A stretch of 64,000 nt of DNA, taken from positions 1-64,000 of the IMG/VR virus record IMGVR_UViG_3300013121_000038, one strand, 5' to 3'. Under the pieces are notes generated by a model. The model was not told the origin of the DNA. It saw only the letters and a program-made list of their open reading frames with translations, and did no database searches. A program made the position numbers and the translations under genes. Shown in pieces: positions 10,789-49,702 of this stretch (its first letter is position 1; each line of letters opens with the position of its first letter). This DNA comes from a virus. Lineage: Duplodnaviria > Caudoviricetes.

Positions 10789-11148
10789 ATGCACCAGGCG
10801 ACTCTTCGTGCTTTCGTCGATGAGATGCAGGGCACCCTCATGAAGGAGGCCTTCATCTCGAAGCTCGCCAACATCCCTCCGCCGGCGGCCGGCACGGCTC
10901 CTGGGTTCGGCAGCCGGGCCGCCAACTGGATCGGCAGGCACAAGGAGCACTTGACGCACGGCGCCGAGCTGGCAGGTCTGGGCATCCTCGGGGTCCCAAG
11001 TGCTCAGAAGCTCAGGAAGATTCGCTCCGCCGAAACCTCGCCTGAGGAGAAGCGAACCGCGAAGTACGAGCTCGCCGGCCTCGGGGTCCTGGCGGCGCCT
11101 TCTGCCATCCACCTCGGCCACGCCGCATGGAAGCACTTCCGGGGGTGA
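10789..11148 (+). CDS. Small tagged protein (FVDEM) with duplicated ELAGLG hydrophobic segments
   Basis: 119 aa; ELAGLGILG and ELAGLGVLA. Confidence 0.7.
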   Translation: MHQATLRAFVDEMQGTLMKEAFISKLANIPPPAAGTAPGFGSRAANWIGRHKEHLTHGAELAGLGILGVPSAQKLRKIRSAETSPEEKRTAKYELAGLGVLAAPSAIHLGHAAWKHFRG

Positions 11149-11149
11149 G

Positions 11150-12088
11150 ATGACGCCGGAAGACGCACTCTTCGACAGGCTGATGCTGGCCGAGAAGGCG
11201 GCTCCTTCTGCGCCTACTGCTGGCAGCCCAGAGGAGGCGTACGTGAAAGCCAAGGGCGAGCCAGACGACTCGAAGCCGGTCACGCTCCGGAATCTCTTCA
11301 CCCATCCGGACGCGCACCCGGTGTCGCTCGACTTCGCCATGCTGAAGGCTTTCGGCAGTGAGTGGTTCTCGTGGCAGGCCGAGACGATCTGGGACGAGAT
11401 CCAGGACGAGTTCAAGAGCCAGATCTCTGAGCTGACGAAGCAGAAGATCCGTGCGCTCCAGTCCTGTCACGTGTCGCTGCTGCCGTGGACCGCCTGGCAG
11501 GTCTTCGAGAAGGTAGCGCACGCCTTCAACGGCACGCTGCCGAACTTCTCCATCATGCAACGTCTGGATCTCGAAGAGCTCTTCGGCGCCGTCGACATGA
11601 TCCCCTTCATCCGCAAGGAGAAGTACTCCGACGAGGTGAAGCTCTACATGGCGGCGACGGTTCTGGAGGAGGACGTCTTCTTCGTCCCAGAGCCGCTGAA
11701 CTTCATCCAGATGGAGGTCTCCCAACCCCACTACCACTGCAACGACTGCGGCAACGAGGAGTCGGCTCTCTTCCACGACGGCTTCTGCTCCGCATGCACG
11801 CAGCGCATGCACCCGTCGCAGGGGCTGACACTGGAGCCGCGTCAGGAGCTGGTGAACCAGGGCCTGGGGCGCAACACCACCATCGTGCCGCGCTACGACC
11901 ACATCCAGGTCATGAAGCGGTGGGAAGAGGTCAAGGCGCTGCCGTTCTCCGAGTTCAAGATGGACGAGAACCGGATGGAAGACGTGCAGGTCCGGCAGCT
12001 TCTACTGGCACGCGACTACATGAACATCCGCCGCAAGCAGCTCGCCGAACAGCTCACGGCGCTCAAGTCCTGGATCGGTGCCTCATGA
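11150..12088 (+). CDS. Hypothetical protein with Zn finger
   Basis: Start MTPEDAL at 11150; CNDC...CSAC. Confidence 0.75.
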   Translation: MTPEDALFDRLMLAEKAAPSAPTAGSPEEAYVKAKGEPDDSKPVTLRNLFTHPDAHPVSLDFAMLKAFGSEWFSWQAETIWDEIQDEFKSQISELTKQKIRALQSCHVSLLPWTAWQVFEKVAHAFNGTLPNFSIMQRLDLEELFGAVDMIPFIRKEKYSDEVKLYMAATVLEEDVFFVPEPLNFIQMEVSQPHYHCNDCGNEESALFHDGFCSACTQRMHPSQGLTLEPRQELVNQGLGRNTTIVPRYDHIQVMKRWEEVKALPFSEFKMDENRMEDVQVRQLLLARDYMNIRRKQLAEQLTALKSWIGAS

Positions 12089-12777
12089 AGCTCACGTCCA
12101 AGGCGCGGAACAAGCTCTCCCCATCCACCTTCGTCTTCCCGGAGGAGAGGCGCTACCCGATCCACGACGAGAGCCATGCACGCAACGCCCTGGCGCGAGC
12201 TTCGGGGAAGTCGGAAGAGGGGAAGGTCAGAGCAGCCGTTCATGCCAAGTACCCAGGCATCGGCAAGGAGTCGCAGATCTCGTTCCTGGATGAGCTCGTG
12301 AAGATCTCAGGCATGGACGACGCCATCGGCTGGGCAGGGCAGCAAGGTCAGCGACTCAAGCGCTTCGGTGGCGGGGTTGCGTCGAACGTCGGCAACGCCG
12401 TCGCCTCCTTCGGCACACCTCGTGAGAGCTTGAAGAAGGGCTGGGAGGCCACGTGGCGCCCAGGCGGCCAACCACTGCATCCTCTCTCGAAGGCGCTTAT
12501 GGCCTACGGCGTCTACAACGACGTGCGTCAGGTAGTGCCTGGGCAGGATCCGTCTGGACAGGGTCGGAGCCGTCTCCACCGAGCGGCAACAGCAGTCGGC
12601 GGACAGCTCGGTGGTATCATGAGCGCGCCGTACGGTCTCAGCGGCGGCCTTGTCGGCGGCATGCTCGGGGCCAAGATGGGCGACTTCGCCGGCCGTGCCA
12701 TCGACAAGGTGAGGGGCTTCAAGCGCGTCCCACAGGCTCCACATCTCCCACCTCGCCCAATCGGTCAGCAGGAGTAG
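12085..12777 (+). CDS. DUF6582-like N-terminus, FLDELVKIS tag and Gly-zipper
   Basis: Start MKLTSKARNKL at 12085 (ATGA overlap); FPEERRYPIHDESHARNALAR; C-terminal GLSGGLVGGMLG. Confidence 0.7.
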   Translation: MKLTSKARNKLSPSTFVFPEERRYPIHDESHARNALARASGKSEEGKVRAAVHAKYPGIGKESQISFLDELVKISGMDDAIGWAGQQGQRLKRFGGGVASNVGNAVASFGTPRESLKKGWEATWRPGGQPLHPLSKALMAYGVYNDVRQVVPGQDPSGQGRSRLHRAATAVGGQLGGIMSAPYGLSGGLVGGMLGAKMGDFAGRAIDKVRGFKRVPQAPHLPPRPIGQQE

Positions 12778-12780
12778 CTC

Positions 12781-14940
12781 GTGTCATACGACAACCTTTC
12801 CCTCGGCTACGGCGGCGTCTCGCGCTTCGCGGGACAGCGCGGCCGTACCCAGGACGGCACCAACCGTTCTGGCGTGAGGTATCCGTCTCCCTTCTTCGAC
12901 ATCGCGCACACCTATCTGCCGCCGTCGATGAAGGCGCTGCTGCGGTGGTGCCGGTACTACTACCTCGTCAACCCGCTCATCAACACGGTCATCCACAAGA
13001 TGTCCGAGTACCCGGTGACGGAGATCATCATCGACGAGCAGGACCAGAGGATCAGGGAGAAGTGGGAGACGGTTCTCGGGCAGCACCTGCGGTACCGCGC
13101 GTTCCAGATCGAGGTCGGCCTCGACTACTACACGTACGGCATCTGCATGGTGACGATCCACTTCCCGTTCACCAAGTACCTCATCTGCAAGCAGTGCAAG
13201 CACAAGGAGAAGGCTGCCAAGGTCCACTACAAGTGGCGCAACCTGGAGTACGTCGGCACCTGCGACAAGTGCGGTACGACCGGCCCGCAGACGGTGCTCG
13301 ACTTCTACGAACGCGACCTGCGCCGCATCCGTCTCATGCGGTGGAACCCCGAGTACATCAACGTGGACCCGGGGTTCGGCGGAGCCGACCCCATCTACAC
13401 CTTCGAGCTGCCTCTCCAGCTCAAGAACGACCTCATCCTCGGCAAGAAGACGGTGCTCGACACCGTGCCGGACATCTTCGTCGAGGCCCTGCGGCGCAAC
13501 AAGTACATCCGCTTCGCCGACGACAACATCTTCGTCTTCCGCCGCCCCATCATCAGCCAGAAGGACAATGGCTGGGGCATGCCGCTCATCTTCCCGGTCC
13601 TGAAGGATGCCTTCTACCTCCAGGTCCTGAGGAAGGCGCAGGAGGCCATCGCTCAGGAGCACATCATCCCGCTCCGCGTCCTCTTCCCTCAGGCCGGCTC
13701 GGCGACCTCAGACCCGTACACCAACATCGACCTCAACGCCTGGAAGAGCCGCATCGAGGGCGAGATCGCCAAGTGGAAGTACGACAACAACTACATCCCC
13801 ATCCTGCCGGTCCCCATCGGCAACGAGACCATCGGCGGGGATGGGAAGGCTCTCGGCCTCTACCAGGAGATGCAGGTCTGGTCAGACCAGATCATCAACG
13901 GCATGGGCGTGCCGCTGGAGTTCGTGAAGGGCGGCCTCCAGTACTCGGGCTCGAACGTCTCGATGCGCATGCTGGAGAACATGTTCATCGGATACCGCCT
14001 CGATCACGAGAACATGCTGAACAACTTCGTCATCCGTCGCATCGCCAACTTCATGCAGTGGCCAGTCGTCAAGGCTCACATGAAGCGGTTCAAGATGGCG
14101 GACGACCTCCAGCGTTCGGCCTTCTACTTCCAGCTCAACCAGGCGCAGAAGATGTCCGACCAGACGCTCATGGCGGAGGTCGACCAGGACTCGGCGGTGG
14201 AGGATGAGCGCAAGAAGCTGGAGCTCGACAAGCAGCTCGAAGCGATGCGCAAGCAGCAGCTCGCTCAGGCCGCCATTCAGGGCGAGGTCATGCTCGTTCA
14301 GAGTCGCTACCAGGCCAAGGCCCAGGAAGCGATGATGAAGAACCAGGCGGCGCTCCAGGAGGCCCAAGGTGGTCAGATGGGCGGAGCTGGCATGCTGGGC
14401 CCGGACCAGATGGCAGGAGCCGGTGCCGGCGGCGGAGCAGGCGGCATTCCGCAGGACATGCTTGGCGCTCCTGGTGGGCAGCCTGGTGGTGGGGCTCAGC
14501 CAGGCGCTGGTGCTGAAGGACCTCCTGGCATGCAGGGTCAGCCGACTCCTGGCGCCGGGCAAGAAGGCGAGATGATCGACGGCCAGAGCGTCGATCCGTC
14601 CATGCCAGAGGGCTCTACCGTCTCTCCAGAGAACGCTCAGCAGGCTCCTGGCGACGGCATCCCCGCCACAGCGGCGTCCCCTCTCCAGATGGGCCAGAAG
14701 GGCGGCGGCTACAACCTGCTCTACCTGGCGAAGAGGGCGGCGAACGCGCTCAAGAAGATGGAGCCGATGCAGGCCAACATGGAGCTCAACCGCATGCGGA
14801 TGGGCAATCCTGGCCTCGGCAACCTCGTCCTCCAGATCATGCAGAAGGAGCGCGGCTCGCAGAAGGATCCGCTCAACCCGATGCAGAGCCCGCAGCCTCA
14901 GCAGAAGCCCACTCGCCGTAAGTCTTCGACTGGGGTGTGA
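12781..14940 (+). CDS. Probable portal protein with Zn-ribbon insert and G/Q/P-rich tail
   Basis: Portal-like order of elements: NPLINTVI..MSEYP, WGMPLI, IINGMGVPLEF..GGL.YSG, then coiled coil. Inference from pattern. Confidence 0.7.
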   Translation: MSYDNLSLGYGGVSRFAGQRGRTQDGTNRSGVRYPSPFFDIAHTYLPPSMKALLRWCRYYYLVNPLINTVIHKMSEYPVTEIIIDEQDQRIREKWETVLGQHLRYRAFQIEVGLDYYTYGICMVTIHFPFTKYLICKQCKHKEKAAKVHYKWRNLEYVGTCDKCGTTGPQTVLDFYERDLRRIRLMRWNPEYINVDPGFGGADPIYTFELPLQLKNDLILGKKTVLDTVPDIFVEALRRNKYIRFADDNIFVFRRPIISQKDNGWGMPLIFPVLKDAFYLQVLRKAQEAIAQEHIIPLRVLFPQAGSATSDPYTNIDLNAWKSRIEGEIAKWKYDNNYIPILPVPIGNETIGGDGKALGLYQEMQVWSDQIINGMGVPLEFVKGGLQYSGSNVSMRMLENMFIGYRLDHENMLNNFVIRRIANFMQWPVVKAHMKRFKMADDLQRSAFYFQLNQAQKMSDQTLMAEVDQDSAVEDERKKLELDKQLEAMRKQQLAQAAIQGEVMLVQSRYQAKAQEAMMKNQAALQEAQGGQMGGAGMLGPDQMAGAGAGGGAGGIPQDMLGAPGGQPGGGAQPGAGAEGPPGMQGQPTPGAGQEGEMIDGQSVDPSMPEGSTVSPENAQQAPGDGIPATAASPLQMGQKGGGYNLLYLAKRAANALKKMEPMQANMELNRMRMGNPGLGNLVLQIMQKERGSQKDPLNPMQSPQPQQKPTRRKSSTGV

Positions 14941-14941: not shown

Positions 14942-15805
14942 ATGGCCATCGACCTTCATGCTTTCGCCGACGAGCTGGTGAAGATCGCCAAGAAGGAAGA
15001 GAAGAAGAACCGGATGTCACTGGGAGAGGCAGCCGCCATCGGCGGCACCGGCTATGTGACGCACAAGGCTGGCAAGGCCACTCAGCGTGGCTTCGCCCAC
15101 TCCCTCCTGCGCCGCGAGACGGGACCAGGGGCCACGGTGGAGGACATCGCCAAGCTCAAGAAGCACATGGGCGTGGAGCAGGTCCCGGTCTTCCACTCCA
15201 ACAACCCAGCCGGGAACGCCGCCTACGTTCCGCGCGGCGGCGCCTTCCGCAGCGCTCTCGGAGAACGCTTCGGTGCGAAGTACCGGCCGGTGGAAGAGAA
15301 GCTCTACCAGAGCATGGGCGCGCACCCCGAAGCCGTGCGGCGTGCCATGGATTCTCAACACGGTGGTGTGTTGACCGGCTCGAATCACGGTCCTCATATC
15401 GTCGCCCACGAGCTCGGGCACGCGGCCGGTCACGTCAAGCATCCCAAGGTCTGGAGCGCGCTCCACAAGTCGATGCTGCCGGCCAGCGCCATCGGGACCG
15501 GAGCTGCCCTCGGCATGTCGGCCATGGCCGACCCGGACTCCAAGAAGTCGAAGTGGGCCCCGGTGGTAGGAGCGCTGGGTCAAGCTCCGAAGCTGATCGA
15601 CGAAGGCATGGCGTCGTGGCGCGGCTACCAAGGCATGAAGCGTTCCGGCTTCAACGCCCAGCAGCTCGCCCATGGACGCGGGCAGCTCCTCCGAGCCTTC
15701 GGCACGTACGCCGGCGGAGCAGCTCTGCCAGTGGCGGGCGCCGTCGGGATTCGACAGGTCCGCAAGTACTTCAAGAAGAAGCGTCAAGAAGCAGCAGGTC
15801 AATAG
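14942..15805 (+). CDS. Tagged (FADELVKIA) HExxH metallopeptidase-like membrane protein
   Basis: VAHELGHA, hydrophobic hairpin, DEGMASWRG, AFGTY; resembles YugP/Zn_peptidase_2 motif order. Confidence 0.65.
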   Translation: MAIDLHAFADELVKIAKKEEKKNRMSLGEAAAIGGTGYVTHKAGKATQRGFAHSLLRRETGPGATVEDIAKLKKHMGVEQVPVFHSNNPAGNAAYVPRGGAFRSALGERFGAKYRPVEEKLYQSMGAHPEAVRRAMDSQHGGVLTGSNHGPHIVAHELGHAAGHVKHPKVWSALHKSMLPASAIGTGAALGMSAMADPDSKKSKWAPVVGALGQAPKLIDEGMASWRGYQGMKRSGFNAQQLAHGRGQLLRAFGTYAGGAALPVAGAVGIRQVRKYFKKKRQEAAGQ

Positions 15806-18208: not shown

Positions 18209-21200
18209 ATGCACAGTGCGAGGATGAGGCAGCCGGTGCCCAGCGACGCCAAGATGGGTGTTCTCATCGAGAACTCCATCAACAAGATCAAGGAGCTGTT
18301 TGCTGACGGCTACCTTGGCAGCTCGCAGCGTTCCCTTCGGCTGAAGGATGTCTGGGCCGAGGATGAGCTGCACTCCAGCGATGTGCAGGGCCAGCTCCAC
18401 GCCAAGCTCAACGATCAGACGTGGGGAGTGCCCATCAAGGCCACCATCGAGCTGATGGACCATCAGACCGGCAAGCCGATCGGCAAGCCGTCGACGGTCA
18501 CACTCATGCGGTTGCCGAAGCTGACGGACCGTTTCTCCTTCATCATCGACGGCGGGGAGTATCAAGTCGACCACCTTCTTCGTCTTCGATCTGGTGTGTA
18601 CACCCGCATCAAGAGGAACGGCGACCTCGTCTCCGAGTTCAACCTCGCGCGAGGCGGCAACAAGAACTTCGGGCTCTACCTCGACCGCAAGAAGAGCCTC
18701 GTCAACTTCCAGCCCAAGTCCTCCGAGGCCAAGGTCCCAGCCTACCCTCTGCTGAAGGTGATGGGCGTCTCGGACGAAGCCATCGAGCAGAGCTGGGGCA
18801 AGGCCGTCTTCGCTGCCAACCGGATCACGAACCCGGAAGCGGAAGAGAAGGTCCTTCGGCGCTTCTACGAGAAGACTGGCGGCAAGGACCTGGGACGCGC
18901 TCCCTCTCTGGAAGAGGTGAAGCAGCACGTCTACAGCTACTTCGACGATACTGCGCTCCGCCCTGAGACGACGAAGGTCACTCTCGGCAAGCCGTTCACC
19001 AAGGTGACCGGAGACGCGCTCTTGTCGGCGTCTTCCAAGCTCATCAAGTTGGAGAAGAAGGAAGTCGATGCAGATGATCGCGACTCCCTCATCTTCAAGG
19101 ACATCGTCCACATCGAAGACTTCATACCGGAGCGTCTCGGCAAGAGCCGTGGCCAGATCAAGCAGAAGGTCCGGAACGCGATCAACAACAAGACCAGCAT
19201 CTCCGAGATTCTCCAGGGTGGTGACATCTTCAAGCGTCCGATCGCCGACTTCTTCATGAAGGGTGGCAACGTCTCGGAGCGTGGGGACCAGACCAACCCT
19301 GTGCAGATGCTCTCAGGCAACTTCAAGACGACCCTCGTCGCCAAGGACTACGGCGGCATCAAGGACGCCGAGAAGCTGGGCGACGAGATGCGCGCCATCA
19401 ACCCCAGCCACTTCGGGTTCCTCGATCCGATGCACACGCCGGAGTCAGAGCGCACCGGCATCACCCTGCACCTCGGCTCAGGTGTCGTGAAGGACGGCAA
19501 CGAGCTGAAGACCCACGTCTACAACCTGAAGACCGGCAGGAACGAGTTGGTGCCGGTGCAGGACTTCCACGAGAAGACGGTCGTCCTCGCCGATCAGATC
19601 TCGTGGAAGAACGGCAAGCCGGTGCCTCATGCTGAGACGGTCAAGGTCAAGCTGCCTGGTGGCGACATCGGAATGCGAGCGATGTCAGAGGCCCACTACG
19701 TCATGCCGACGGCGAAGTCCATGTTCTCATGGGCCTCGAACCTGATTCCGTTCCTCCAGAACGATCAGGGCAACCGAGCCTCGATGGCGGACAAGCAGAT
19801 CGAGCAGGCCATCTCGCTGAAGTACCGAGAGGCGCCACTGGTCCAGTCCTCCGTCCACCAGGACAACCCCGAGTACACCTTCGAGAAGCACCTGGGGAAG
19901 AACATCGCTTCGCACAAGGCCCCAGTCGCCGGCGAGGTGGTGAAGGTCACGCCTGATGAGATCCACATCAAGAACGGCAAGGAGACACACAAGGTCCAGC
20001 TCTACAATCATTTCCCGCTGAACGATCCTGCGGCGATGCTGCACTCGACGGTGCTCGTGAAGCCTGGGGACCAGGTCAAGGCGAATCAGGTCTTGGCTGA
20101 CTCCAACTTCTCGAAGAACGGAACCCTGGCGCTCGGCACCAACCTGCGAGTCGGCTACATCCCGTACAAGGGCTACAACTTCGAGGACGGCATCGTCATT
20201 TCGGAGGGTGCATCGCAGCGGCTCACGTCGGAGCACCTGCACAAGCTGAAGCTCGACATCGACACGAAGATCGATCGGACCAGCAAGGCCTCCTGGAAGG
20301 CCCACTCGTCCCGGAAGGCCGCAGGTCTGGGCAAGGATCAGTGGGATGCGCTCGACGATGACGGAGTCGTGCGTGAGGGGACCGTCGTCCGGCCTGGGCA
20401 GATCCTCGTCACTGCCCTCACCCCCAACGTCCAGAAGAGCGACGTCCGCGCCAAGGCCTTCGGTCCGTCTCGTGCTGGCAAGGCCTGGAGAGACAAGTCT
20501 CTGACCTGGGACTCCGACTACGTCGGCACAGTGGCGCGCGTGGTGAAGTCGCCGAATGGCGGCGTCGTCCACGTCCATATCAAGACCGAGGAGCCGGCTG
20601 AGATCGGCGACAAGCTCTCAGGCCGACACGGCAACAAGGGCATCATCACCAAGATCCTGAAGAACGAGGAGATGCCGTTCACCGTCGATGCGGCGACGGG
20701 AGAGAGACGGCACATGGACGTGCTACTCAACCCATCAGGCATCCCGACCCGCATCAACCCTGGCCAGGTGCTGGAGACAGCCGCTGCGAAGATCGCTGAG
20801 AAGACTGGGAAGCCGTACTTCGTGAACAACTTCACCGGCGCTGGCCATGACTACCGCCAGATGGTGGTGGACGACCTCAAGAAGCATGGCCTCACCGACG
20901 AGGAGCTGGTCTACGACCCATCGGACGTCCGCAAGCCGCTCGGTTCGGTTCTCGTAGGCCCGCAGCACCTGCTGAAGCTGAAGCATCAGGTCGAGAAGAA
21001 GCTGGTCGTCCGTGGCGGCGAGTCAGACCTCGAAGGCCGGCAGTACGGATACGACTACGACATGCAGCCCTACAAGGGCGGAGCGCATGGCGGACAGGGC
21101 TTCGGCGCTCTGGAGCTCTACTCGCTCCTCGGCCACAACGCCCGCCACAACCTGCGCGAGATGTCGACCTACAAGTCCGACATGCAGGGCCCAGACTTCT

Positions 21201-35280: not shown

Positions 35281-35337
35281 TTGGCTGATTCTCCCATGGG
35301 TTGAAGAGAAACGAAGACCGAAAGTCTTCATCTCATT

Positions 35338-39781: not shown

Positions 39782-40579
39782 ATGCCGATGGATCCACAGC
39801 TCGCTGCCATCTACGGGACCAACCAGGACGAGAGCGACGTCGAGAAGCTCGCCGCCGCCGAGCTCGCCGAGGAGCTCGCAGACGAGGGCGAGGAGGTCGA
39901 GGAGTCCGACCTCTCCGACGAGGAGGCCGAGGAGCTCGCCCAGCAGCTTCTCGCCGCCGAGGGCGAGGAGGGCGCGGAGCAGGGTGACGAGGAGGACGAG
40001 GAGGGCGCCGCCGTCGAGGAGCCGGGCGAGGAGGAGCAGGAGAAGCTCTCCGAGGCCGACTACCTGGGCCGCGTCATGGCCCACGCCTACACCCAGGAGC
40101 TCCGCAAGATCGCCGCCGTCGGCGACTCCAGCGCCTACGAGGGCAAGGACACCGCGTCCCGCGCCCAGAAGGTCGGCGGCTGGGCTCGTCGTCAGGGCCA
40201 CCGTGCTGCCGGCGCCGCCAAGGCCTTCGGCAAGCACTTCAAGGGCGGCGACAAGTGGTCCCTGAAGGGCCAGCACGCCGGCAAGACCTGGGGTGCTCGC
40301 GCCGCCGTCGGTGCGGCTGCCGGTGCTGCCGGCTACGGCGCCTACCGGAAGTTCAAGGGCAAGGGCAAGAAGAAGCAGTCCGCCGCCGAGCCGTCGGCCC
40401 TCGACATCCTCGCCGAGCGCCGCGCGCTGGAGATCCTGGCCGAGAACGGCATCGACCCGACCCAGGAGCAGGAGAAGACCAGCGCCTCCGAGCCCGAGAT
40501 GGAGGCCCTCGGCAACGCCGTCGAGCAGCGGGCGTACGCGCTGCTCCAGGCCAACGGCTACATCCAGGAGCAGGAGTAG
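39782..40579 (+). CDS. Acidic scaffold-like protein carrying a basic Gly/Ala cassette
   Basis: E-rich ends; YTQELRKIAA ... KKQSAA flank a cationic segment. Confidence 0.7.
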   Translation: MPMDPQLAAIYGTNQDESDVEKLAAAELAEELADEGEEVEESDLSDEEAEELAQQLLAAEGEEGAEQGDEEDEEGAAVEEPGEEEQEKLSEADYLGRVMAHAYTQELRKIAAVGDSSAYEGKDTASRAQKVGGWARRQGHRAAGAAKAFGKHFKGGDKWSLKGQHAGKTWGARAAVGAAAGAAGYGAYRKFKGKGKKKQSAAEPSALDILAERRALEILAENGIDPTQEQEKTSASEPEMEALGNAVEQRAYALLQANGYIQEQE

Positions 40580-40585: not shown

Positions 40586-40622
40586 CCTGGTGGGCGGCGG
40601 GTACGAGACGCCGCCCACCAGG
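40586..40622 (+). terminator. 14-bp stem-loop (terminator or mRNA stabiliser)
   Basis: CCTGGTGGGCGGCG...CGCCGCCCACCAGG; no U-tract. Confidence 0.5.
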
Positions 40623-40640
40623 CTGTAGTTCGGAGTGCGC

Positions 40641-41021
40641 ATGCCAGCTTGGATCCACGACAGGGCAGAGCACATCCAGAAGAAGAACCCGTCGATGCCG
40701 AAGAGCCAGGCCTTCGCCATCGCCACGCAGCAGTCGCACGCGACAGGACACACCCCGCAGGGCTACGGAACGGCAGAGGGCAAGAGGAAGGCGAAGAGGA
40801 AGTACGACAAGCCGGCGTCGAGCTACACGCAGACGGCGGACCCTAGCAGCAAGACCAAGTCGAGCGGCCTCAACTTGGTTTTCCTGAAAGGGTTCACAAG
40901 CGAGCTTGAGAAGATCTCAGGCGTGTCTGTGAAGAAGAGGTTGGAGCACCCAGCGGAGAAGCCGTCGGCGACTCCTGAGAACTTTCCACCGCCCCTCGCG
41001 TCAGCAGCAGGGGACAGATAG
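40641..41021 (+). CDS. Small basic protein with FTSELEKIS tag
   Basis: MPAWIHDRAEHIQKKNPSMPKSQAFAIATQQ; GGAG RBS. Confidence 0.7.
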   Translation: MPAWIHDRAEHIQKKNPSMPKSQAFAIATQQSHATGHTPQGYGTAEGKRKAKRKYDKPASSYTQTADPSSKTKSSGLNLVFLKGFTSELEKISGVSVKKRLEHPAEKPSATPENFPPPLASAAGDR

Positions 41022-41033
41022 GACGGAGATGCG

Positions 41034-42599
41034 ATGAAGACCAAGCTCGCCGGTCACCTGCCACTCCAGGACGCCATCGCGCGGACCATCGAGGAGGCGC
41101 GCGAGAAGATGAAGCTCGCCTCCGATGCCTGCGAGGGGGAGGACAAGGAGAAGGTGAAGAAGCTGGTGAAGTTCGAGAAGAAGGAGCACGGCCACATCCC
41201 CTCCGAGAAGGAGGAGCGGGCCGAGTACGAGAAGAAGAGCTCCATCATCGACACCGACGACCCGGAGGAGGTGGAGAAGCTGGCCGCCTCGCTCGACTTC
41301 CTCGCCGAGAAGATCGCCGGCGACTCCGTCACCATCGGCGGCGAGTCGCGTCAGGGCGGCCAGGTCCTCGCGACCATGAACGCCGTCGGCGGCACCCAGC
41401 CCTACAAGAAGGACTCGTCCAAGAGCCACAACGTGCCGACGTCGACCGGCATGAAGTCGACGAAGGACAACCCAGGCGCGTCCACCGCCGTCCCCACGGA
41501 CGACGAGCGGGCCCCTGGCGGCACCGGGGCCAAGTACCCCGCCAAGGGCGTCCTCAAGACCGGCGGCGTGAAGAAGACGGCCATGGACTACCACCAGGCC
41601 CGCGCGGTCGGCCAGGCCGTCGGCCTCGGCACCCATCTCGTGGGCGGCGCCATCGGCTACCAGAAGGGCAAGGAGCAGCACGCCCGAGGCGAGAAGCACA
41701 CCTTCGGGGTGCCGCAGGGCGCGGCCGCCCTCTTCCTCCCAGGCGGCGCCGGCTACCAGCTCGGCCGCTACATGGGCCACAACGCGGCCGGCGGCGAGAA
41801 GAAGAAGGGGAAGAAGAAGCACAGCTCCGTCGAGCGGCTCCAGCTCGCGCTGGCAGCCCAGACCGGCATCGTCACCCCGGAGATGGCTGCCGACATGGAG
41901 AAGGACGCCGGCAAGGTCACCGACGCCCTGAAGTCCATGGGCGGCAAGGCGCGCGCCGCCGGCGGCCGCGTCATGGAGCTCCTCAAGGGCGGGAAGTTCG
42001 GCGCTGGCAACCGCGCCAGCAACTACCGGCCTGGTGCGAGAGGCACCATCCCTTCGAGCGAGGCGTGGAAGTCGCTCGGGACTCGTGCTGCGGCCGGAAC
42101 GGCTGCCGTCGTCGGCGGGAAGAAGGCCTACGACAAGCTGAAGAAGAAGGGCAAGAAGAAGGCCGCCGGCGTCGAGGCCGTCGACTACATCCTCTCCAAG
42201 ATCAGCGCCGTCGAGAACGGTGGCGAGAGCCCGCAGGGTGGTGAGCAGCTCAGCAACACCGCCCCGGTGCCCTCCAACGCCGGCCGTGAGCTCATCCGGA
42301 ACAAGGACGGCATCAAGAACGTGACCAAGGCCCAGGCCAAGTCCCCTCGCAAGAAGGAGCTGGCCGAGGTCCTGACCGAGCCTGCCATGAGCGCGGCTCA
42401 CGACTCCAAGGTCAACGAGAACCTGCGGAACGCCGCGAAGGGCGGCGTGAAGATCGCAGCGGCACGGGTGTTCCTCCAGAAGATCGCTTCGGAGGGCTGC
42501 CAGTGCTCTGGCGCCGGCAAGTGCCGGTTCTGCCAGATGCAGGAGAAGGCTGCCGCACTTCGCGGCAACGGAGCCGAGGCCGTCGCCTCGGAGGCATGA
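41034..42599 (+). CDS. Modular head/scaffold polyprotein
   Basis: 521 aa; more than 10 K-x-[AS] motifs, internal GGES.QGG repeat, C-terminal CQC...CRFC. Confidence 0.75.
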   Translation: MKTKLAGHLPLQDAIARTIEEAREKMKLASDACEGEDKEKVKKLVKFEKKEHGHIPSEKEERAEYEKKSSIIDTDDPEEVEKLAASLDFLAEKIAGDSVTIGGESRQGGQVLATMNAVGGTQPYKKDSSKSHNVPTSTGMKSTKDNPGASTAVPTDDERAPGGTGAKYPAKGVLKTGGVKKTAMDYHQARAVGQAVGLGTHLVGGAIGYQKGKEQHARGEKHTFGVPQGAAALFLPGGAGYQLGRYMGHNAAGGEKKKGKKKHSSVERLQLALAAQTGIVTPEMAADMEKDAGKVTDALKSMGGKARAAGGRVMELLKGGKFGAGNRASNYRPGARGTIPSSEAWKSLGTRAAAGTAAVVGGKKAYDKLKKKGKKKAAGVEAVDYILSKISAVENGGESPQGGEQLSNTAPVPSNAGRELIRNKDGIKNVTKAQAKSPRKKELAEVLTEPAMSAAHDSKVNENLRNAAKGGVKIAAARVFLQKIASEGCQCSGAGKCRFCQMQEKAAALRGNGAEAVASEA

Positions 42600-42609
42600 G
42601 GAGCTGACG

Positions 42610-43005
42610 ATGCCCGACAAGATCAGCAACGTCCAGGTCGCCCAGCTCCAGAAGCTGGCGAGCACCACCCTCCGGAAGCTGGCGGGGGAGAACAAGACGC
42701 TCCGCGACGAGAACGGTGACCTGAAGACCAAGGTCGCCGCCTTCGAGAAGAGGGCTCGCGCGGAGAAGATCGCGTCCGAGATGGAGTCCAAGGGGCTCAA
42801 CCTCGGATCCACCTTCGAGCAGAAGGTGGCAGAGCTGCTGGAGAACGACCGACTCGACGTCGTCGAGGAGGCCGTCGGTCTGGCGGCGCCGCAGATCAAG
42901 CTCGCCTCCGTCCACGAGGACGGCGTCGAGGTGGAGAGCACGGGAGACGACGCCGCCGACAGGGCGACGCAGGTCTTCGCAGCAGGGCTCGCCTCCCTCG
43001 GCTGA
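42610..43005 (+). CDS. Coiled-coil scaffold-like protein
   Basis: 131 aa; QKLAS, EKIAS, IKLAS. Confidence 0.7.
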   Translation: MPDKISNVQVAQLQKLASTTLRKLAGENKTLRDENGDLKTKVAAFEKRARAEKIASEMESKGLNLGSTFEQKVAELLENDRLDVVEEAVGLAAPQIKLASVHEDGVEVESTGDDAADRATQVFAAGLASLG

Positions 43006-43575: not shown

Positions 43576-44715
43576 ATGAGCGTGCCAGCCAAGGTCCTGA
43601 ACGACCTGTTCTTCGAGAAGGTCGCCACCCAGGAGGGCAAGGACAAGATCGCCGAGTTCGGCGGGACGTACATCCGCGACCGACTCCGCGAGGTCTCCTT
43701 CGCCCGCAAGGTCCTCCCCCCGCAGCCCGTCCAGCGGTCCGAGTGCCAGCGGTCCGTCAACCACGACACCCTGGTCAAGATCGTCGACATCGAGCCCAAC
43801 TCGAAGGCGATGGCCATGGGCTTCCGTGGCCAGCCCACGGCGCGCTTCATCCGCGCGCCGCGCTACGAGATCCCCTTCTTCACGATCTCGTCCGAGAAGT
43901 TCGAGAAGACGGAGCAGGAGCTCCTCGCCTACGAGATGCCCATCACCAAGATCATCGAGGAGAACTCGGTGAAGGACATCCAGAGCATCGAGGACCGCCA
44001 GTTCCTGCTCTTCATCGAGGCCGCCGTCCAGGGCTTCCAGACCGACGCGAACGGAGGGGCCACGGCGTTCAACCACACGAACGTCAACGCCGGCTCCGTG
44101 AAGTCGGCCTCCGTGGTGAAGGGTGAGGGCGCCCTCACCGCCACGACCGAGGACTTCACCGTCTACCCCGTCCTCAAGACGGACTTCATCAAGATGAAGA
44201 AGCTCCTGCACCGCCGGCACCTCCGCGCGGAGCGGATGCTTCTCACCGAGCCGGACTACGACGACATCTCGTCGTGGACCATCCAGGACGTCGGCATGAC
44301 GATCGCCGGCGAGACCTCCACCGAGGGCTGGAAGAGCGACACGGTGGTGGGCCTGAAGATCATCCGCACCATCAAGACCGAGATCCTCCGCGAGGGCAAC
44401 ATCTACTGCTTCACCGCGCCGGAGTTCTGCGGCCGCTTCTACGTCCTCAACCAGACCAAGTTCTACATCGACAAGATCGCGAACCTGATCACCTGGCAGT
44501 CGTGGGAGGACATCGCGATCGGCATCGGCAACATCTCGTCGATCGTGAAGATGGAGCTCTACCCCGGCTCCGTCACGCCTGGTGAGGAGACCGCCATCGG
44601 CGGCGGCATCGACTACCGCGCGGCCCTGCCCGTGGACGAGCTCGACCCGCTCCTCGCCCCGACCAACAACAAGGTCGACCAGGGCCTGAAGTACCCGAAC
44701 GTCTCCCAGTTCTAG
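43576..44715 (+). CDS. Major capsid protein (HK97 fold)
   Basis: 379 aa, extreme codon bias, IRDRLREVSFARKVLPP, KDIQSIEDRQFL; position in head operon; followed by a strong hairpin. Confidence 0.8.
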   Translation: MSVPAKVLNDLFFEKVATQEGKDKIAEFGGTYIRDRLREVSFARKVLPPQPVQRSECQRSVNHDTLVKIVDIEPNSKAMAMGFRGQPTARFIRAPRYEIPFFTISSEKFEKTEQELLAYEMPITKIIEENSVKDIQSIEDRQFLLFIEAAVQGFQTDANGGATAFNHTNVNAGSVKSASVVKGEGALTATTEDFTVYPVLKTDFIKMKKLLHRRHLRAERMLLTEPDYDDISSWTIQDVGMTIAGETSTEGWKSDTVVGLKIIRTIKTEILREGNIYCFTAPEFCGRFYVLNQTKFYIDKIANLITWQSWEDIAIGIGNISSIVKMELYPGSVTPGEETAIGGGIDYRAALPVDELDPLLAPTNNKVDQGLKYPNVSQF

Positions 44716-45317: not shown

Positions 45318-45865
45318 TGATGGCCGACGACCTCGGATACGGCGCAGCAGGCACCAACCTCCCGGCTCCGTCCATGGAGTCGGCTGAGGGCGTGGTGCTG
45401 CCGGCGGCGCCGACGGAGCTCAACGACTTCGTCAACCAGGTCCGGCTCTTCATGCGGGACTACTCGGAGCTGAACCGCCTCATCGCCGGGGAAGAATCCT
45501 CGAACCGCCAGATCATGTGGGCCGTCTTGGACGCCCTCGACGATTTCAACACAGACCCGCCCTTCACCCGCTTCAACCTGAACAGCTTCCCGTCTCGCAG
45601 CCTGCTGCTACGGCTCACCGTCATCTCGCTGCTGGAGTCGATCGGCCTCCTCCAGACGCGCAACCATCTCCAGTTCTCGGACGGAGGCATCCAGGTCGGC
45701 ATCAACGACAAGACGCCATTCCTCCAGTCCTGGATCCAGCTCTTCCGTTCTCGCTCCGACCAGAAGAGCCAGCGGCTCAAGGTCGCCTACAACATCGAGG
45801 CAGCCTGGGGCGGCGGCATCCACAGCGAGTACCGCTTCGTGAACAACTTCTACGGAGAATGGTGA
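45317..45865 (+). CDS. Probable head-tail adaptor
   Basis: 182 aa helical protein after the MCP; positional inference. Confidence 0.55.
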   Translation: MMADDLGYGAAGTNLPAPSMESAEGVVLPAAPTELNDFVNQVRLFMRDYSELNRLIAGEESSNRQIMWAVLDALDDFNTDPPFTRFNLNSFPSRSLLLRLTVISLLESIGLLQTRNHLQFSDGGIQVGINDKTPFLQSWIQLFRSRSDQKSQRLKVAYNIEAAWGGGIHSEYRFVNNFYGEW

Positions 45866-46443
45866 TGCGGCCCAACATCGACTCCTTCTTCGACGAGCTG
45901 CTGAACGTCTCGGAAGAGCTCACCAAGCAGTCGAATGCCCCTGTCCCTACCCCGAAGAAGGTTGGGCTTTCTGGCAAGGGCGCTCTCATCGGTGGCGCTC
46001 TCGGCGCCGGCCTGGGCGGAATCCGCGCCATCGGCCGAGAGACGCACGAGCGTGCGGCTGATGACCGTGCCGGCCTGACCGACGAGCAGAAGAAGGTCCT
46101 GAGGAAGAAGCGTCTCGCCGGTCACGCAGCCAACATCCTGGCCTGGAGCGGCGCAGGCTCTGGCATCGGTAGCCTGGAGCGCAAGGCGCGCGGTGTCGTC
46201 GGCGAGGCCGGAGAGAAGGTGTGGGATTCCATCGACTACGCCCGCGCGCACGCAGACGAGGTCGTCGCGGATGCTCGCAAGCACGCGGACCAGGTCGTCG
46301 CCGACGCCCATGCCCGCGCCAACCAGACTGTTCACGACGCGCCGAAGAACTTCGTCAAGGGCATCGGTCACGCTGCGGCAAACGCCGGAAAGCGAGTCGG
46401 TCGCGGCATCAAGTCCATCTTCACCAGGAAGCCGAAGGTGTAA
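45865..46443 (+). CDS. Tagged (FFDELLNVS) Gly-zipper protein
   Basis: Start MRPNIDSFFDEL at 45865; GALIGGALGAGLGG; tandem HAD[EQ]VVADA repeat. Confidence 0.7.
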   Translation: MRPNIDSFFDELLNVSEELTKQSNAPVPTPKKVGLSGKGALIGGALGAGLGGIRAIGRETHERAADDRAGLTDEQKKVLRKKRLAGHAANILAWSGAGSGIGSLERKARGVVGEAGEKVWDSIDYARAHADEVVADARKHADQVVADAHARANQTVHDAPKNFVKGIGHAAANAGKRVGRGIKSIFTRKPKV

Positions 46444-46452: not shown

Positions 46453-46593
46453 ATGGCCATCGCAGCGTTCAAGGTCGCCGAGTTCAGCACCGCCCTGGAT
46501 CTCCAGAAGTTCGTGGCGACTGGGGCGCCCGTCGTTGTCGTCTCCATCGTCTTCAACGGCGCCAGCGGCAAGTACGTCCTGTTCTACACCTAG
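46453..46593 (+). CDS. 46-aa protein
   Basis: Hand-translated MAIAAFKVAEFSTALDLQKFVATGAPVVVVSIVFNGASGKYVLFYT; TAAGGAG RBS. Confidence 0.65.
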   Translation: MAIAAFKVAEFSTALDLQKFVATGAPVVVVSIVFNGASGKYVLFYT

Positions 46594-46606
46594 CCAGGGA
46601 GCGGCC

Positions 46607-47233
46607 GTGGACGACCTCACCTTCTATCAGGCGCTGCGCGGTCCAAGGGCCGAAGGCGGCGAGGCATGTCTGCGCTCCCTCATGAAGAAGACTGCCCAGA
46701 CAACGCCGGTCAAGAAGCCGATCTCCGTCCAGGACACTCATGCCATATCCAACGACATCCAGGCTCGGATGGCGGAGGTCGTGAAGAGGCTGAAGGCGAT
46801 CAAAGCCGGCAAGATCAAGAAGGGCTCGGCCGAGGAAGCGAAGAAGCAGGTCCTCGACCGACTCAAGGCTCATGCTCCTGAGCTCATCGGCGGCGGTGTC
46901 GGAACCGTGGCGGGTGGTCTGTACGGTTATCTTGCGTCCCGCCGCAAGGATCCGAAGAAGCCGTCGGCCATGGAAGAGGACGCCGCCAAGATGCTGCGGG
47001 CGTACGAACGTGCCGAGCAGGAGATGAAGGAAGAGGGCAAGAAGCCAGGCTTCCCGCACAAGATGCGTGGTGTCTACGCCCGTGCCTTCGCCGACGCCTC
47101 GAAGGTGATGAAGGAGCATCCAGTCGCCACCGGCGCGATGTATGGCGGCGCCGCTGGTTCGGCCGGGGCAGGGCTCGGTCGTATCGCCTACGACCTCTAC
47201 AACAGCAGAATCGGAAAGGGCCTCGACGTATGA
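46607..47233 (+). CDS. Gly-zipper protein
   Basis: GTG start at 46607; LIGGGVGTVAGGLYG and GAMYGGAAGSAGAGLG. Confidence 0.65.
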   Translation: MDDLTFYQALRGPRAEGGEACLRSLMKKTAQTTPVKKPISVQDTHAISNDIQARMAEVVKRLKAIKAGKIKKGSAEEAKKQVLDRLKAHAPELIGGGVGTVAGGLYGYLASRRKDPKKPSAMEEDAAKMLRAYERAEQEMKEEGKKPGFPHKMRGVYARAFADASKVMKEHPVATGAMYGGAAGSAGAGLGRIAYDLYNSRIGKGLDV

Positions 47234-48477
47234 ACCACGAAGCTCAACTCGCCAAGACCCTCGGAGACGACGAGCAGGAGAAGCTCGCGTCCCACTTTGC
47301 TTCCTACACCGTCGACGAGCTCGCGTCTCTCCTGAAGGAGAAGACTGCGCTCGCTCCGATGCCTGCTCCTGCGGCGACCCAGGGCGATCTCATGCGTGAG
47401 CGCACCAAGGGCGGGCGGATGATCAACACGCTGAAGAATACCTTCAAGCCGCCAGTGCTGGCGTCGGTGAAGATCGCCGACGAATGGGGCCGGCAGCTAG
47501 CGAACGAGGACATCGAGAAGAACGCCTTCATGGATCAGGCGCTCGGCCTCGCCGTCGGTCATCACTATGGCAAGGAGCAGAAGAAGCGTGGCGAGAACTA
47601 CAGCTTCGGAGTTCCGCAGGGCGCCGCTGCTCTCTTCCTGCCTGGGGGAGCCGGCTACCAGATCGGCCGCTACATCGGCCACAACGACAAGAGCGTGAAG
47701 AAGGGCAAGAAGAAGAAGGCCAGCGCCCAGCTCGTCTACGAAGCGCTCATGGAGAAGATCTCTACCGGCGCCGTCGGCAACCTCGGCGGCCAGATGCCGA
47801 GCCTCACACCGAAGATGCCGACTGCTCCCAAGGTCGGCGCCGGCAACATGATGCCGCGAATCGGAACGGTCGGAGGTGGCGGGCTCGGCAAGACCGTGAC
47901 GGGCGCGGCCAGGCTGCGCGCGGAAATGGACAAGGTGGCCTTCTGGGGCTCCGGCACCATCGCCAAGGGCATCAACTGGGCCGCCCCTCATCTCGCCAAG
48001 GCCACCAGCGCCCTCGCGTCGGCTGGGCCAGGCAAGTCCGCTCTCATCGGCGCCGGCGTGGGTGCTGCCGGCGGTGCCGCGCGGCACGCGCTGTCGGGCA
48101 GAGACCCCCAGACGGGGCAGAAGCGCACCACCCTGCTAGGTTCCATGGCCGGCGGCGCCGCTCTCGGTGGCGCGGCTGGCGCTGGTCTCAGTGCAGGAGC
48201 CAGCCGCTTCCAGGGCTCTGCGCTGCATGGGCGCATGACCAGCGGCAACTTCAAGTTCAACACCCAGCCTCCGGCTGCGGCCGCAGGAGCAGCCGGCGCC
48301 GCCGGGCCGACGCCTGTCGCGCAGCCGGCGCCAGTCGGTCCAGGCGGACTGCGTCCGAATCCAGAAGGCGCTCCGGCACACTGGCGAAACGCTCCGCCTC
48401 CGCCGGCTGCTGGTCCTCAGGCAGCCGGTCCACAGCCAACGCCAGTGAAGAAGGGCTGGTTCGGGCTCGGCAGGTAG
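47230..48477 (+). CDS. Modular Gly-zipper polyprotein
   Basis: 415 aa; EKLAS, EKTA, VKIA, EKNA, KKAS, EKIS and DKVA separate distinct modules. Confidence 0.75.
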   Translation: MNHEAQLAKTLGDDEQEKLASHFASYTVDELASLLKEKTALAPMPAPAATQGDLMRERTKGGRMINTLKNTFKPPVLASVKIADEWGRQLANEDIEKNAFMDQALGLAVGHHYGKEQKKRGENYSFGVPQGAAALFLPGGAGYQIGRYIGHNDKSVKKGKKKKASAQLVYEALMEKISTGAVGNLGGQMPSLTPKMPTAPKVGAGNMMPRIGTVGGGGLGKTVTGAARLRAEMDKVAFWGSGTIAKGINWAAPHLAKATSALASAGPGKSALIGAGVGAAGGAARHALSGRDPQTGQKRTTLLGSMAGGAALGGAAGAGLSAGASRFQGSALHGRMTSGNFKFNTQPPAAAAGAAGAAGPTPVAQPAPVGPGGLRPNPEGAPAHWRNAPPPPAAGPQAAGPQPTPVKKGWFGLGR

Positions 48478-48480
48478 TCG

Positions 48481-49392
48481 ATGATCCCTCTCGTCACCAA
48501 GCTGTGGGTTCGGTCCTTCAACATGGACCACATGGACGTGTTCTGGGAGATCGGCCCGGTGCCGGCGACCAGCGACACGGCTCCCCACACCATCTTCGAC
48601 TGCGAGTTCACCGTCCTCCGTTCGCAGGCGGCGCTTGGTCCGTACGAGGCGATCAGCTTGCCGTTGATGGACCAGTACCACTTCCGCGACGTGAAGATCT
48701 CCCGTCTCCACAAGTGGCGGCAGTGGTTCTACAAGCTGAAGGTCACCAACAAGAAGACAGGCGAGGAGAAGGAGTACGGGCCATGCTCCGACGTCGAGCC
48801 GGAGCCGGACCTCATCGCCGCAGAGATCATCCGGCAAGAGGACATGCTCTTCCGGAAGTTCGTGGGTCGACGCTGCTGGCTCCTACCTGTGCGCACCTTC
48901 GGCCCTCGCTGTTCCTGCTTCGACACTACGCTGCAACGGGTCACACGCTCTGCGCATCTGCCGTGCTTCGGCACCGGATGGCTCGGCGGGTACATGCGCC
49001 CTGTAGAGGTCTTCGTCCAGTTCGACCCGAACCCGAAGCGCACAGTGCTTCAGGCCACAGGCGAGATGCAGCCGACGAATGCCTCCGCCAGGATGTCTTC
49101 CTTCCCACCCACCAGCCCGCGTGACATCATCATCGAGTCGGAAAACCGTCGCTGGCGTGTGGTGAATGTCTCACAAACTCAACGGCTTAGGGCGGCCGTA
49201 CACCAGGAGCTCACTCTCCACGAAGTTCCCAAGACAGACGTCGAGTACTCCATCCCTCTCGACGTCGACGCGCGCTCGGTGACTCCGTCCGACGAGGGGA
49301 ACTTCACGAACGCGCAGAACATCGAGAAGCATGGCGACGACTCCGACATTCTCTCGTTCTGGACTGGCAAGGCACGCGGCACTCTTCGATGA
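48481..49392 (+). CDS. Probable neck/head-completion protein
   Basis: 303 aa; RCSC...PCFGTGWLGGY; positional inference. Confidence 0.55.
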   Translation: MIPLVTKLWVRSFNMDHMDVFWEIGPVPATSDTAPHTIFDCEFTVLRSQAALGPYEAISLPLMDQYHFRDVKISRLHKWRQWFYKLKVTNKKTGEEKEYGPCSDVEPEPDLIAAEIIRQEDMLFRKFVGRRCWLLPVRTFGPRCSCFDTTLQRVTRSAHLPCFGTGWLGGYMRPVEVFVQFDPNPKRTVLQATGEMQPTNASARMSSFPPTSPRDIIIESENRRWRVVNVSQTQRLRAAVHQELTLHEVPKTDVEYSIPLDVDARSVTPSDEGNFTNAQNIEKHGDDSDILSFWTGKARGTLR

Positions 49393-49702
49393 GATCGAGA
49401 AGATCTCCGAAGAGGCGCACGTGATGCAGCCGGCTCCAGTTGCGCCCAAGAAGAAGCCGAACTGGAAGAACGTCCTCAAGGCTGGTGCCGGCTACGCACT
49501 CGGTGGCGCGGCCGGCTACGTCGGCGGCATGGCAGCAGAGCGCGGGCTCGCGCACGTCTTCAGGAACAAGTGGCCGTCGATGACGCCTGAGCAACGGTAC
49601 AAGGTGCTCTATCCGGCTCTCGGCGCCGCGACCGTCGGCCTCATGGCAGTGAACCACGCCTCCCAGATTCGCCGTCAGCAGGCTCTGGAGGGAGATGAGT
49701 GA
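49331..49702 (+). CDS. Tagged (LFDEIEKIS) Gly-zipper protein
   Basis: 123 aa; GAGYALGGAAGYVGG and ALGAATVGLMAV. Confidence 0.7.
   Translation: MATTPTFSRSGLARHAALFDEIEKISEEAHVMQPAPVAPKKKPNWKNVLKAGAGYALGGAAGYVGGMAAERGLAHVFRNKWPSMTPEQRYKVLYPALGAATVGLMAVNHASQIRRQQALEGDE

Follow-up and report, generated by a model that had tools for sequence, protein, structure and literature searches.

Why should the head-gene region of a large tailed phage encode basic proteins built around glycine-rich helices in one gene after another, and where would such proteins act? The question is raised by the first 64 kb (the window) of a 102-kb linear record from IMG/VR (IMGVR_UViG_3300013121_000038), which is estimated to be 55% complete; the guanine plus cytosine (GC) content of the window is 60-68%. 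An original prediction, made from the letters of this DNA, had pointed to twelve genes between positions 10789 and 49702 and proposed that they encode cationic, Gly-zipper membrane hairpins that are packaged in the head and ejected into the host. The analysis presented here indicates that most of these genes do encode glycine zippers, that those of two gene families form a conserved two-helix hairpin resembling a class of bacterial membrane domains, and that this hairpin comes and goes in defined slots among the head genes. That the proteins are carried in the capsid and act at the host inner membrane is the reading that we favour, tentatively.

Glycine zippers among the head genes

All twelve coordinates lie in plausible reading frames, with a GC content at third codon positions of 0.75-0.94. 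Each gene is named here by its first position; the tag mentioned in several entries is the motif F-x-D-E-L-x-K-I, which is taken up in the next section.

10789-11148, plus strand: g10789, 119 amino acids, isoelectric point (pI) 10.1; a weak member, with a variant of the tag at its N-terminus and two short ELAGLG(I/V)L apolar repeats.
12085-12294, plus strand: g12085, about 69 amino acids; not a zipper protein, DUF6582-like (PF20223, 25.1 bits against a cut-off of 27.3).
14942-15805, plus strand: g14942, 287 amino acids, pI 10.2, directly after the portal gene; a zipper protein with an HExxH motif, in the order tag, Gly-rich N-terminal segment, AHExGH and DPDS, C-terminal apolar Gly/Ala segment, Lys/Arg tail.
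28047-29414, plus strand: g28047, 455 amino acids, net charge +47; three zipper hairpins, a J-like segment between hairpins, and the tag at the C-terminus.
30265-31350, plus strand: g30265, 361 amino acids; N-terminal tag, a helix-loop-helix zipper (nucleotides 30670-30840) and a third apolar helix (31069-31113).
37014-38030, plus strand: g37014, 338 amino acids, conserved in the clade; a Gly/Ala apolar helix (about 37554-37622) that runs into a small helical domain.
39782-40579, plus strand: g39782, 265 amino acids, pI 4.5, following the protease gene in a scaffold-like position; a Gly/Ala zipper and Lys tail near residues 165-200.
41034-42599, plus strand: g41034, 521 amino acids, also in a scaffold-like position; conserved ends and a hypervariable middle with zipper and Lys cassettes.
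45865-46443, plus strand: g45865, 192 amino acids; tag, a strong zipper helix (45979-46023) and a second Gly-rich segment.
46607-47233, plus strand: g46607, 208 amino acids, with a GTG start and GGGAG 7 nucleotides upstream; zipper helices at 46883-46939 and 47117-47179.
47230-48477, plus strand: g47230, 415 amino acids; the tag variant Y-T-x-D-E-L-A-x-L-L, a cassette shared with g41034, and a conserved hairpin (48037-48204).
49331-49702, plus strand: g49331, 123 amino acids; tag, a zipper helix (49481-49537) and a second apolar helix.

GxxxG motifs are most numerous in g28047 (20), g47230 (14) and g30265 (9), followed by g46607 and g41034 (7 each), g45865 and g14942 (6 each) and g49331 (3). 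Per 100 residues, there are 2-4.4 motifs in g28047 (4.4), g47230, g46607, g45865, g30265, g49331 and g14942, 1.2-1.5 in g41034, g39782 and g37014, and 0.8 in g10789, while most other genes of the window have fewer than one. Taken over the whole proteins, the candidates hold 81 GxxxG motifs against 50.5 expected from composition shuffles (z 4.6); the other 51 proteins of the window hold 112, with 107 expected (z 0.5). Within 29 uncharged, Gly-rich segments, pairs of Gly spaced i+4 number 58, against 32.6 expected from shuffles made within each segment (z 5.8); minor peaks are seen at spacings of 8 and 11, and the only main peak is at i+4. This enrichment argues that the glycines lie on one helical face and are not plain low complexity. 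The predicted dozen is thus reduced to about eight clear zipper proteins and three in which the pattern is weak (g39782, g37014 and g10789); g12085 has no GxxxG and drops out.

The remaining descriptions of these proteins fared unevenly. Cationic they are, except for g39782, which is acidic: their pI values are 9.6-10.5, where the median of the other proteins is 6.7, and their net charges range from +5 to +47; Lys is used in preference to Arg (0.63 versus 0.51) despite 63% GC. Their dispersal through the head region was likewise recovered, since the cationic zipper open reading frames (ORFs) of the 102-kb record are confined to 10.8-49.7 kb and none lies at 64-102 kb, the 38 kb that carry tail-fibre and early genes. 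By inspection, neither an N-terminal hydrophobic region nor a lipobox is present, as the predicted lack of signal peptides requires, and Cys is absent from 8 of the 11 remaining candidates. To call the segments hydrophobic was an overstatement: the highest 19-residue Kyte-Doolittle mean is 1.54 or less, under the classical cut of 1.6. The zippers of Escherichia coli SlyB and OsmB are equally low on this scale (1.51 and 1.0, with 1.0-1.54 for the phage segments). Since the zipper class as a whole is only weakly hydrophobic, low values argue neither against nor for membrane insertion, and the proposed check by classical transmembrane prediction does not discriminate for this class, because the hydrophobicity scales used (Hessa and Wimley-White among them) score SlyB and OsmB just as low.

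The candidates are not one sequence family: in an all-against-all BLASTP comparison, a common cassette is detectable only in g41034 and g47230. The two-helix arrangement is defined by two families with their own alignments. An exhaustive search with g30265 gave 21 relatives, and the alignment (A2) has invariant columns G153, G157, A158 and G161 in helix 1 and G173, A174, G177, G181 and G189 in helix 2, with the loop consensus K-P-G-E-R-x-K-G-A-L-K-G-G; the N-terminal tag and the third apolar helix are also kept. In the g47230 family (alignment A4) the invariant residues are G274, A275, G278, A279, G282, A283, P293, G296, G309, A310, L312, G313 and G317, and a loop that contains D-P-x-T-G-Q follows A283 and precedes G309. 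In both alignments, invariant Gly/Ala columns spaced i+4 flank a loop of 10-25 residues, which is the two-helix design of the Pfam 2TM type, and the two hairpins align in register with hhalign (E 1.3e-4). The three hairpins expected in g28047 are present, at nucleotides 28086-28301, 28362-28565 and 28968-29135; a profile of the g30265 hairpin detects the third at 27 bits and the other two weakly, and also finds g46607 and g45865. Both zipper helices of g46607 are retained in the homologue from locus L005, and the homologue of g10789 in relative G002 likewise scores as a zipper ORF.

Judged by profile scores, the phage hairpin is a borderline member of the Pfam glycine-zipper 2TM families. Against PF13441 (Gly-zipper_YMGG), g30265 scores 22.5 bits as a protein, 28.8 in a six-frame search and 29.5 when its neighbours are included, with a cut-off of 28.9, and one relative of the g30265 family (P0014) reaches 35.8 bits, above that cut-off; glycine-zipper Pfam models give 13-17 bits, below cut-off, with g28047, g45865, g46607 and g47230. 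The phage hairpin profile also matches E. coli OsmB in register. According to Pfam and the literature, this domain consists of two GxxxG helices inside the membrane; the 2TM zippers of SlyB, OsmB and YfgH have been described as membrane-embedded, and SlyB is reported to form oligomeric rings around lipid (bioRxiv 10.64898/2025.12.22.696046).

A reshuffled module, a shared tag and probable packaging

The phage of the window is uncultured, and its genome is taken to be about 200 kb long. A related capsid protein is encoded in more than 170 IMG/VR contigs, and complete relatives are 193-210 kb long, with direct terminal repeats in some. No DNA-level match to a cultured phage was found by Megablast with 20 kb; by the major capsid protein (MCP), the nearest cultured relatives are Salmonella phage Arash (30% identity) and three Vibrio phages. 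The neighbouring genes that serve as landmarks are these:

12781-14940, plus strand: portal protein (PHROGs).
18209-24556, plus strand: RNA polymerase beta/beta'-like fusion of 2115 amino acids, matching Arash Gp206 and Gp216.
33034-34836: large terminase (PHROGs).
34897-35394, minus strand: protein of 165 amino acids, pI 10.3, outside the earlier list, with a Gly-containing segment of Kyte-Doolittle value 1.61.
38027-39721, plus strand: prohead maturation protease (phrog_18299, E 2e-8), with no Pfam family and no sequence match in the PDB.
43576-44715, plus strand: MCP (PHROGs).
50459-53782, plus strand: tail sheath (PHROGs), the presence of which means that the tail is contractile.

Three observations on this neighbourhood stand apart from the zipper set. 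The portal protein carries a C-terminal low-complexity tract rich in Gly, Ala, Pro and Gln (residues 543-578; 14407-14514, plus strand), which, unlike the cationic zippers, has no Lys/Arg flanks. Between g45865 and g46607 lies an ORF of 47 amino acids (46454-46597, plus strand), with an AAGGAG ribosome-binding site and a Val/Ile run at its end. The Gly-containing segment of the 34897-35394 protein is the most hydrophobic one of the candidate set and is followed by R-G-V-K-Y-Y-R-R-R; this product of a minus-strand island adjoining the terminase gene is possibly a true membrane protein.

Conservation of the candidates falls into two patterns. The genes g37014, g39782 and g41034 are kept in nearly all relatives. 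For g45865, g46607 and g47230, zero or one tblastn match each was found across 21 loci with full flanks, and g28047, g30265 and g14942 had no tblastn match in four relatives with whole head regions; a homologue search with g28047 in a set of 5.8 billion proteins returned only the protein itself. Yet relatives have other Gly-zipper, Lys/Arg-rich ORFs, whose BLAST similarity has been lost, mostly in the same slots: one follows the portal gene, one surrounds the counterparts of genes 25736 and 29411, and one lies between those of 45317 and 48481. The context of most g30265-family relatives comes from profile searches of ten related phage genomes. One complete genome has a full-length homologue in syntenic position; elsewhere the hairpins lie within the g41034 homologue (as in G003) or in the slot after the capsid gene. 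(A locus search from one family member, P0007, found no related loci.) Only the ends of g41034 are conserved, and its variable middle has zipper or Lys cassettes in some relatives. A cassette of about 50 residues, the F-G-V-P-Q-G-A-A-A-L-F-L-P-G-G-A-G-Y-Q cassette, is common to g41034 (41570-41830) and g47230 (47530-47730) and is matched again inside an 862-residue homologue of 25736 in relative G001 (L091), which indicates that the cassette moves among different head proteins. To judge from these comparisons, the hairpin behaves as a module that is gained, lost and reshuffled repeatedly, within the head genes, at a set of defined variable positions.

The tag links many of these proteins. F-x-D-E-L-x-K-I occurs in ten head-region proteins, including ones without zippers, and it co-occurs with zippers (Fisher p 0.017); a regular expression finds it in 7 of the 11 candidates, with a variant in the g47230 family; the original prediction had most of them carrying the tag or K-x-A sites. 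The g30265, g14942 and g47230 families keep it at their N-termini, and in g28047 it is C-terminal. I-A-E, V-S-E or I-S-E comes directly after the tag in g30265, g45865 and g49331. The capsid-targeting sequence of phage T4 ends in F-I-A-E, and the T4 prohead protease cuts after Glu. Tag ends of the I-[AS]-E type suggest, by this analogy, that cleavage would follow a rule other than K-x-A. The K-x-A sites that had been listed as an attribute of these proteins do not set them apart: K-x-[AS] occurs 66 times with 64 expected, a chance level, and was rejected as a site code for the candidates.

Further evidence comes from Arash, whose MCP, protease and RNA polymerase are 30%, 41% and 32% identical to those of the window. 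Liquid chromatography-mass spectrometry of purified Arash particles detected 116 of 272 proteins, with the RNA polymerase subunits Gp206 and Gp216 at the top by spectral count, and the list includes Gp213, Gp221 and Gp224 (PMC10585845). The g37014-family profile matches Gp221 at 49.6 bits (by BLASTP the pair is not significant), the g30265-hairpin profile gives 21 bits with Gp213, and Gp224 is a zipper protein in the slot immediately upstream of the capsid gene. Gene order is shared as well, running from 36083/Gp220 and g37014/Gp221 through the protease (Gp222 in Arash), an acidic protein and a basic zipper protein to the capsid gene. A scan of 91 kb of Arash showed three genuine zipper proteins and no more, Gp4, Gp213 and Gp224, all annotated as structural. 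Of these, Gp4 (L107:2528-5821) is a structural protein of 1097 residues with the second-highest spectral count; its residues 184-223 form a 40-residue uncharged, Gly-rich zipper segment, and it has no BLAST homologue in the window. Profiles of the g39782 and g41034 families found no match among 29 proteins of the Arash head/tail locus. Unlike the phage of the window, Arash has zipper proteins without the F-x-D-E-L tag, only about three of them in the scanned half, and no insert between Gp233 and Gp234, the place where the window has g45865 to g47230.

The claim that these are packaged proteins has thus gained several lines of indirect support, namely the location of the genes among head genes on the late strand, the tag, the lack of export signals, the variable slots and the related virion proteins of Arash, from which we infer packaging in the phage of the window. 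On balance, it seems somewhat more likely than not that the candidates are packaged in the capsid.

At least two of the zipper proteins appear to carry added domains. In g28047, residues of about 205-250 (nucleotides 28659-28796, plus strand) contain an HPD motif and score 19.9 bits against the Pfam DnaJ cut-off of 27.8 (E 8e-4), and all 16 PDB matches to this segment are J domains, each of them weak (E 0.04-0.8); the segment between hairpins is probably a J domain, and the layout recalls membrane-anchored co-chaperones of the DjlA type. An alignment of the g14942 family (A3, seven sequences) has invariant A-H-E-x-G-H (HExxH) and D-P-D-S, which suggests a candidate packaged zinc peptidase with a head tag. 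Neither the J-like nor the HExxH part reaches a curated cut-off. In two relatives of the g30265 family, P0007 and P0010, the tag, a DUF6582-like domain and the hairpin are joined in this order in one protein, and this fusion points to a functional link between genes that are separate in the window. Some occupants of the slots in relatives have a helicase-type G-S-G-K-T motif; in G001 (L091/L092, ORF 40605-42950 of a joined 50-kb stretch) and G003 (ORF 20790-22247), H-Q-Q-R-V-V-D-R-I-Q precedes G-S-G-K-T and zipper segments are present. Arash also packages a helicase, Gp217.

Searches and models of other kinds gave little on function. Against PHROGs the candidates yielded a single weak match, to a family without assigned function, and the ESM Atlas gave sub-threshold leads of low confidence, to zipper families only. 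AlphaFold2 (AF2) modelled g37014, with 31 homologues, at a predicted local distance difference test score (pLDDT) of 71; a long helix (residues 182-225) starts with the Gly/Ala segment, which takes up half of it, and leads into a small helical domain, and the model had no significant fold match in the PDB or BFVD.

A proposed capsid cargo acting at the host membrane, and its alternatives

What might such proteins do? The reading that we tentatively favour takes about ten basic proteins, each with one to three zipper hairpins joined to Lys/Arg-rich loops and tails, as cargo of the capsid, and places the action of their hairpins at the inner membrane of the host; its membrane part is the more tentative of its components. 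In this mechanism, the tag would bring the proteins into the prohead, and they would stay in the filled head. They would then exit by the contractile tail along with the DNA and the packaged polymerase, and the hairpins would self-associate by their Gly/Ala faces in the cytoplasmic membrane. There, the zipper assembly could permeabilise the membrane or help DNA and protein across it, and the hairpins could anchor the attached effector domains. Packaging, ejection into the host and membrane activity are steps that we infer. Membrane insertion is plausible because the hairpin is near the Pfam 2TM class, because its hydrophobicity is that of SlyB and OsmB, and because there is a precedent in the secreted effector Tde1, described below.

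A number of points weigh against this mechanism. The segments are under the classical transmembrane thresholds, and the Pfam matches are at or below cut-off for all but one relative. The strong positive charge would suit DNA binding inside the head equally well, and g39782 and g41034, given their scaffold-protein position, may be assembly proteins and not cargo. Because several sequence families are involved, a single common function is an assumption. With 116 of 272 proteins, the Arash list is permissive, so that the presence in it of all three zipper proteins is not significant alone, and Arash is a distant relative. An AF2 model of g28047, made without an alignment, was uninformative (pLDDT 44).

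Charge is also what commends the main alternative, which is possible but rather unlikely: that the proteins are purely capsid-internal, with Lys tails that neutralise packaged DNA and Gly/Ala helices that zip the proteins together for condensation or as an inner body, and with no role at the host membrane. The pI of about 10 and net charge of up to +47, the preference for Lys despite high GC, and the location of g39782 and g41034 in the scaffold slot adjoining the protease and MCP genes all fit this alternative, as do the basic internal proteins of T4 and the abundant paralogous head proteins of phages phiKZ and Goslar. However, the part of the protein that is conserved is the uncharged hairpin of the membrane 2TM zipper type, and it is the basic linkers that vary; J-like and HExxH domains would be unexpected for DNA counter-ions, and PF12699, the family of injected proteins in phiKZ, is absent.

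Alternatively, the genes might encode late proteins that stay outside the virion and serve the infected cell in its membrane or in assembly, such as assembly chaperones or lysis or exclusion factors, and their location among head genes would then be incidental. Glycine-zipper 2TM domains are indeed typical of envelope proteins, and the minus-strand 34897 product resembles an ordinary membrane protein. Yet the candidates have no signal peptide, lipobox or classical transmembrane segment by which to reach the membrane from the cytoplasm, their tag is common to non-zipper proteins of the head module, and Gp213, Gp221 and Gp224 of Arash were detected in virions, all of which makes this alternative improbable. 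Finally, the idea that fast-evolving disordered regions at 63% GC have simply drifted to Gly/Ala/Arg low complexity, leaving functionless GxxxG motifs, draws on the fast evolution and the few or no homologues of several genes and on the low AF2 and ESM confidence, but it is very improbable and already largely refuted by the conservation data, given the i+4 periodicity over within-segment shuffles, the invariant Gly/Ala columns of two families, the same pattern in relatives at 53-64% GC and in Arash, and the use of Lys (AAR codons) instead of Arg.

The favoured mechanism, capsid cargo that acts at the inner membrane, can be extended to a wider joint one, which is distinctly unlikely as a whole. 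Here, in a widespread clade of phages of about 200 kb, capsid-delivered, rapidly diversifying, tagged hairpins would assemble SlyB-like rings or channels in the inner membrane, would serve the genome and the 230-kDa RNA polymerase as an entry portal or as a protected compartment, and would moor a J domain, for DnaK recruitment, and a metallopeptidase. Were it true, it would be a phage counterpart of zipper translocation by the type VI secretion system (T6SS) and an alternative to the injected-protein system of phiKZ. The conduit or vesicle compartment of the original prediction found no specific support in this work, PF12699 being absent from the clade members searched.

Relation to known systems

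The way in which large phages get their DNA, and packaged enzymes of very large size, past the inner membrane is largely unexplained, and the same holds for the role of the abundant non-shell proteins in their heads; the Goslar study itself describes both the functions of the injected proteins and the formation of the entry vesicle in Chimalliviridae as open. This clade offers a recognisable module, a two-helix glycine zipper with a targeting tag, that is repeated in many genes and can be tied to an experimentally studied membrane motif (SlyB, OsmB, Tde1), and it thereby provides testable candidates for phage entry or early takeover; for experiments, a distant cultured relative is at hand in Arash. 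Taken singly, its elements have been described before: domains with glycine zippers, internal proteins with tags, and translocation that depends on a zipper. In full-text searches on glycine zippers with phage virions, ejection proteins or tape-measure proteins, the work on Tde1 was the only relevant result, and a multi-gene, tagged, hypervariable set of 2TM-type zipper hairpins in a phage head module appears to be undescribed.

In phiKZ and Goslar, multiple paralogous head proteins (PF12699, DUF7941) of a large phage are injected with the DNA, and an RNA polymerase is packaged too. A link to this injected family was rejected, with no PF12699 match at E <= 0.01 in the record itself and four complete relatives. 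The two sets have no fold or sequence relation, and the clade, unlike phiKZ and Goslar, has no sign of an early phage infection (EPI) vesicle or of a phage nucleus.

The internal proteins of T4 (IPI-III and Alt) offer another comparison. They have an N-terminal capsid-targeting sequence, are basic, are encoded at variable loci, are packed in the head and are injected. As in T4, unrelated, basic and fast-evolving proteins share a short tag here, and their genes occupy variable slots between morphogenesis genes. Unlike the T4 proteins, which lack zippers and show no homology to the candidates (PHROGs), one of the set (g28047) has its tag at the C-terminus, and cleavage and packaging are putative.

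For the zipper itself, the nearest functional parallel is Tde1, a DNase effector of the Agrobacterium T6SS, which is loaded and secreted even if its consecutive GxxxG motifs are disabled, but which needs them to permeabilise the prey cell and to get into it across the inner membrane (PMC10240207). The likeness to Tde1 would be that GxxxG repeats lie next to a putative effector domain in presumed cargo of a contractile machine. In contrast to Tde1, many genes are involved, they belong to the head and not the tail module, and the hairpin loops are cationic; no adaptor or immunity gene was recognised here, and no sequence homology to Tde1 was shown. The Tde1 authors noted similar zippers in prophage tape-measure proteins (PMC10240207). 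An identity as tail tape-measure proteins was considered for the candidates and rejected: the genes encode 119-521 residues, are scattered from next to the portal gene to just upstream of the sheath gene, and mostly carry the head tag.

In structure, the likeness is to the bacterial families PF13441, PF05433 (Rick_17kDa_Anti) and PF13488, which have the same two short Gly/Ala helices with GxxxG repeats, a short loop and weak hydrophobicity. Characterised bacterial members, such as SlyB and OsmB, are typically lipoproteins that are exported to the outer membrane and have a signal peptide and a lipobox Cys; these features lie outside the Pfam domain proper, and the phage proteins lack both. In addition, the phage proteins differ from the bacterial 2TM members in that they are strongly basic, bear a phage-specific N-terminal tag, have up to three hairpins each and are encoded among head genes. 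If the reading favoured here is correct, the glycine-zipper 2TM class would extend from exported bacterial lipoproteins to proteins that are delivered by viruses.

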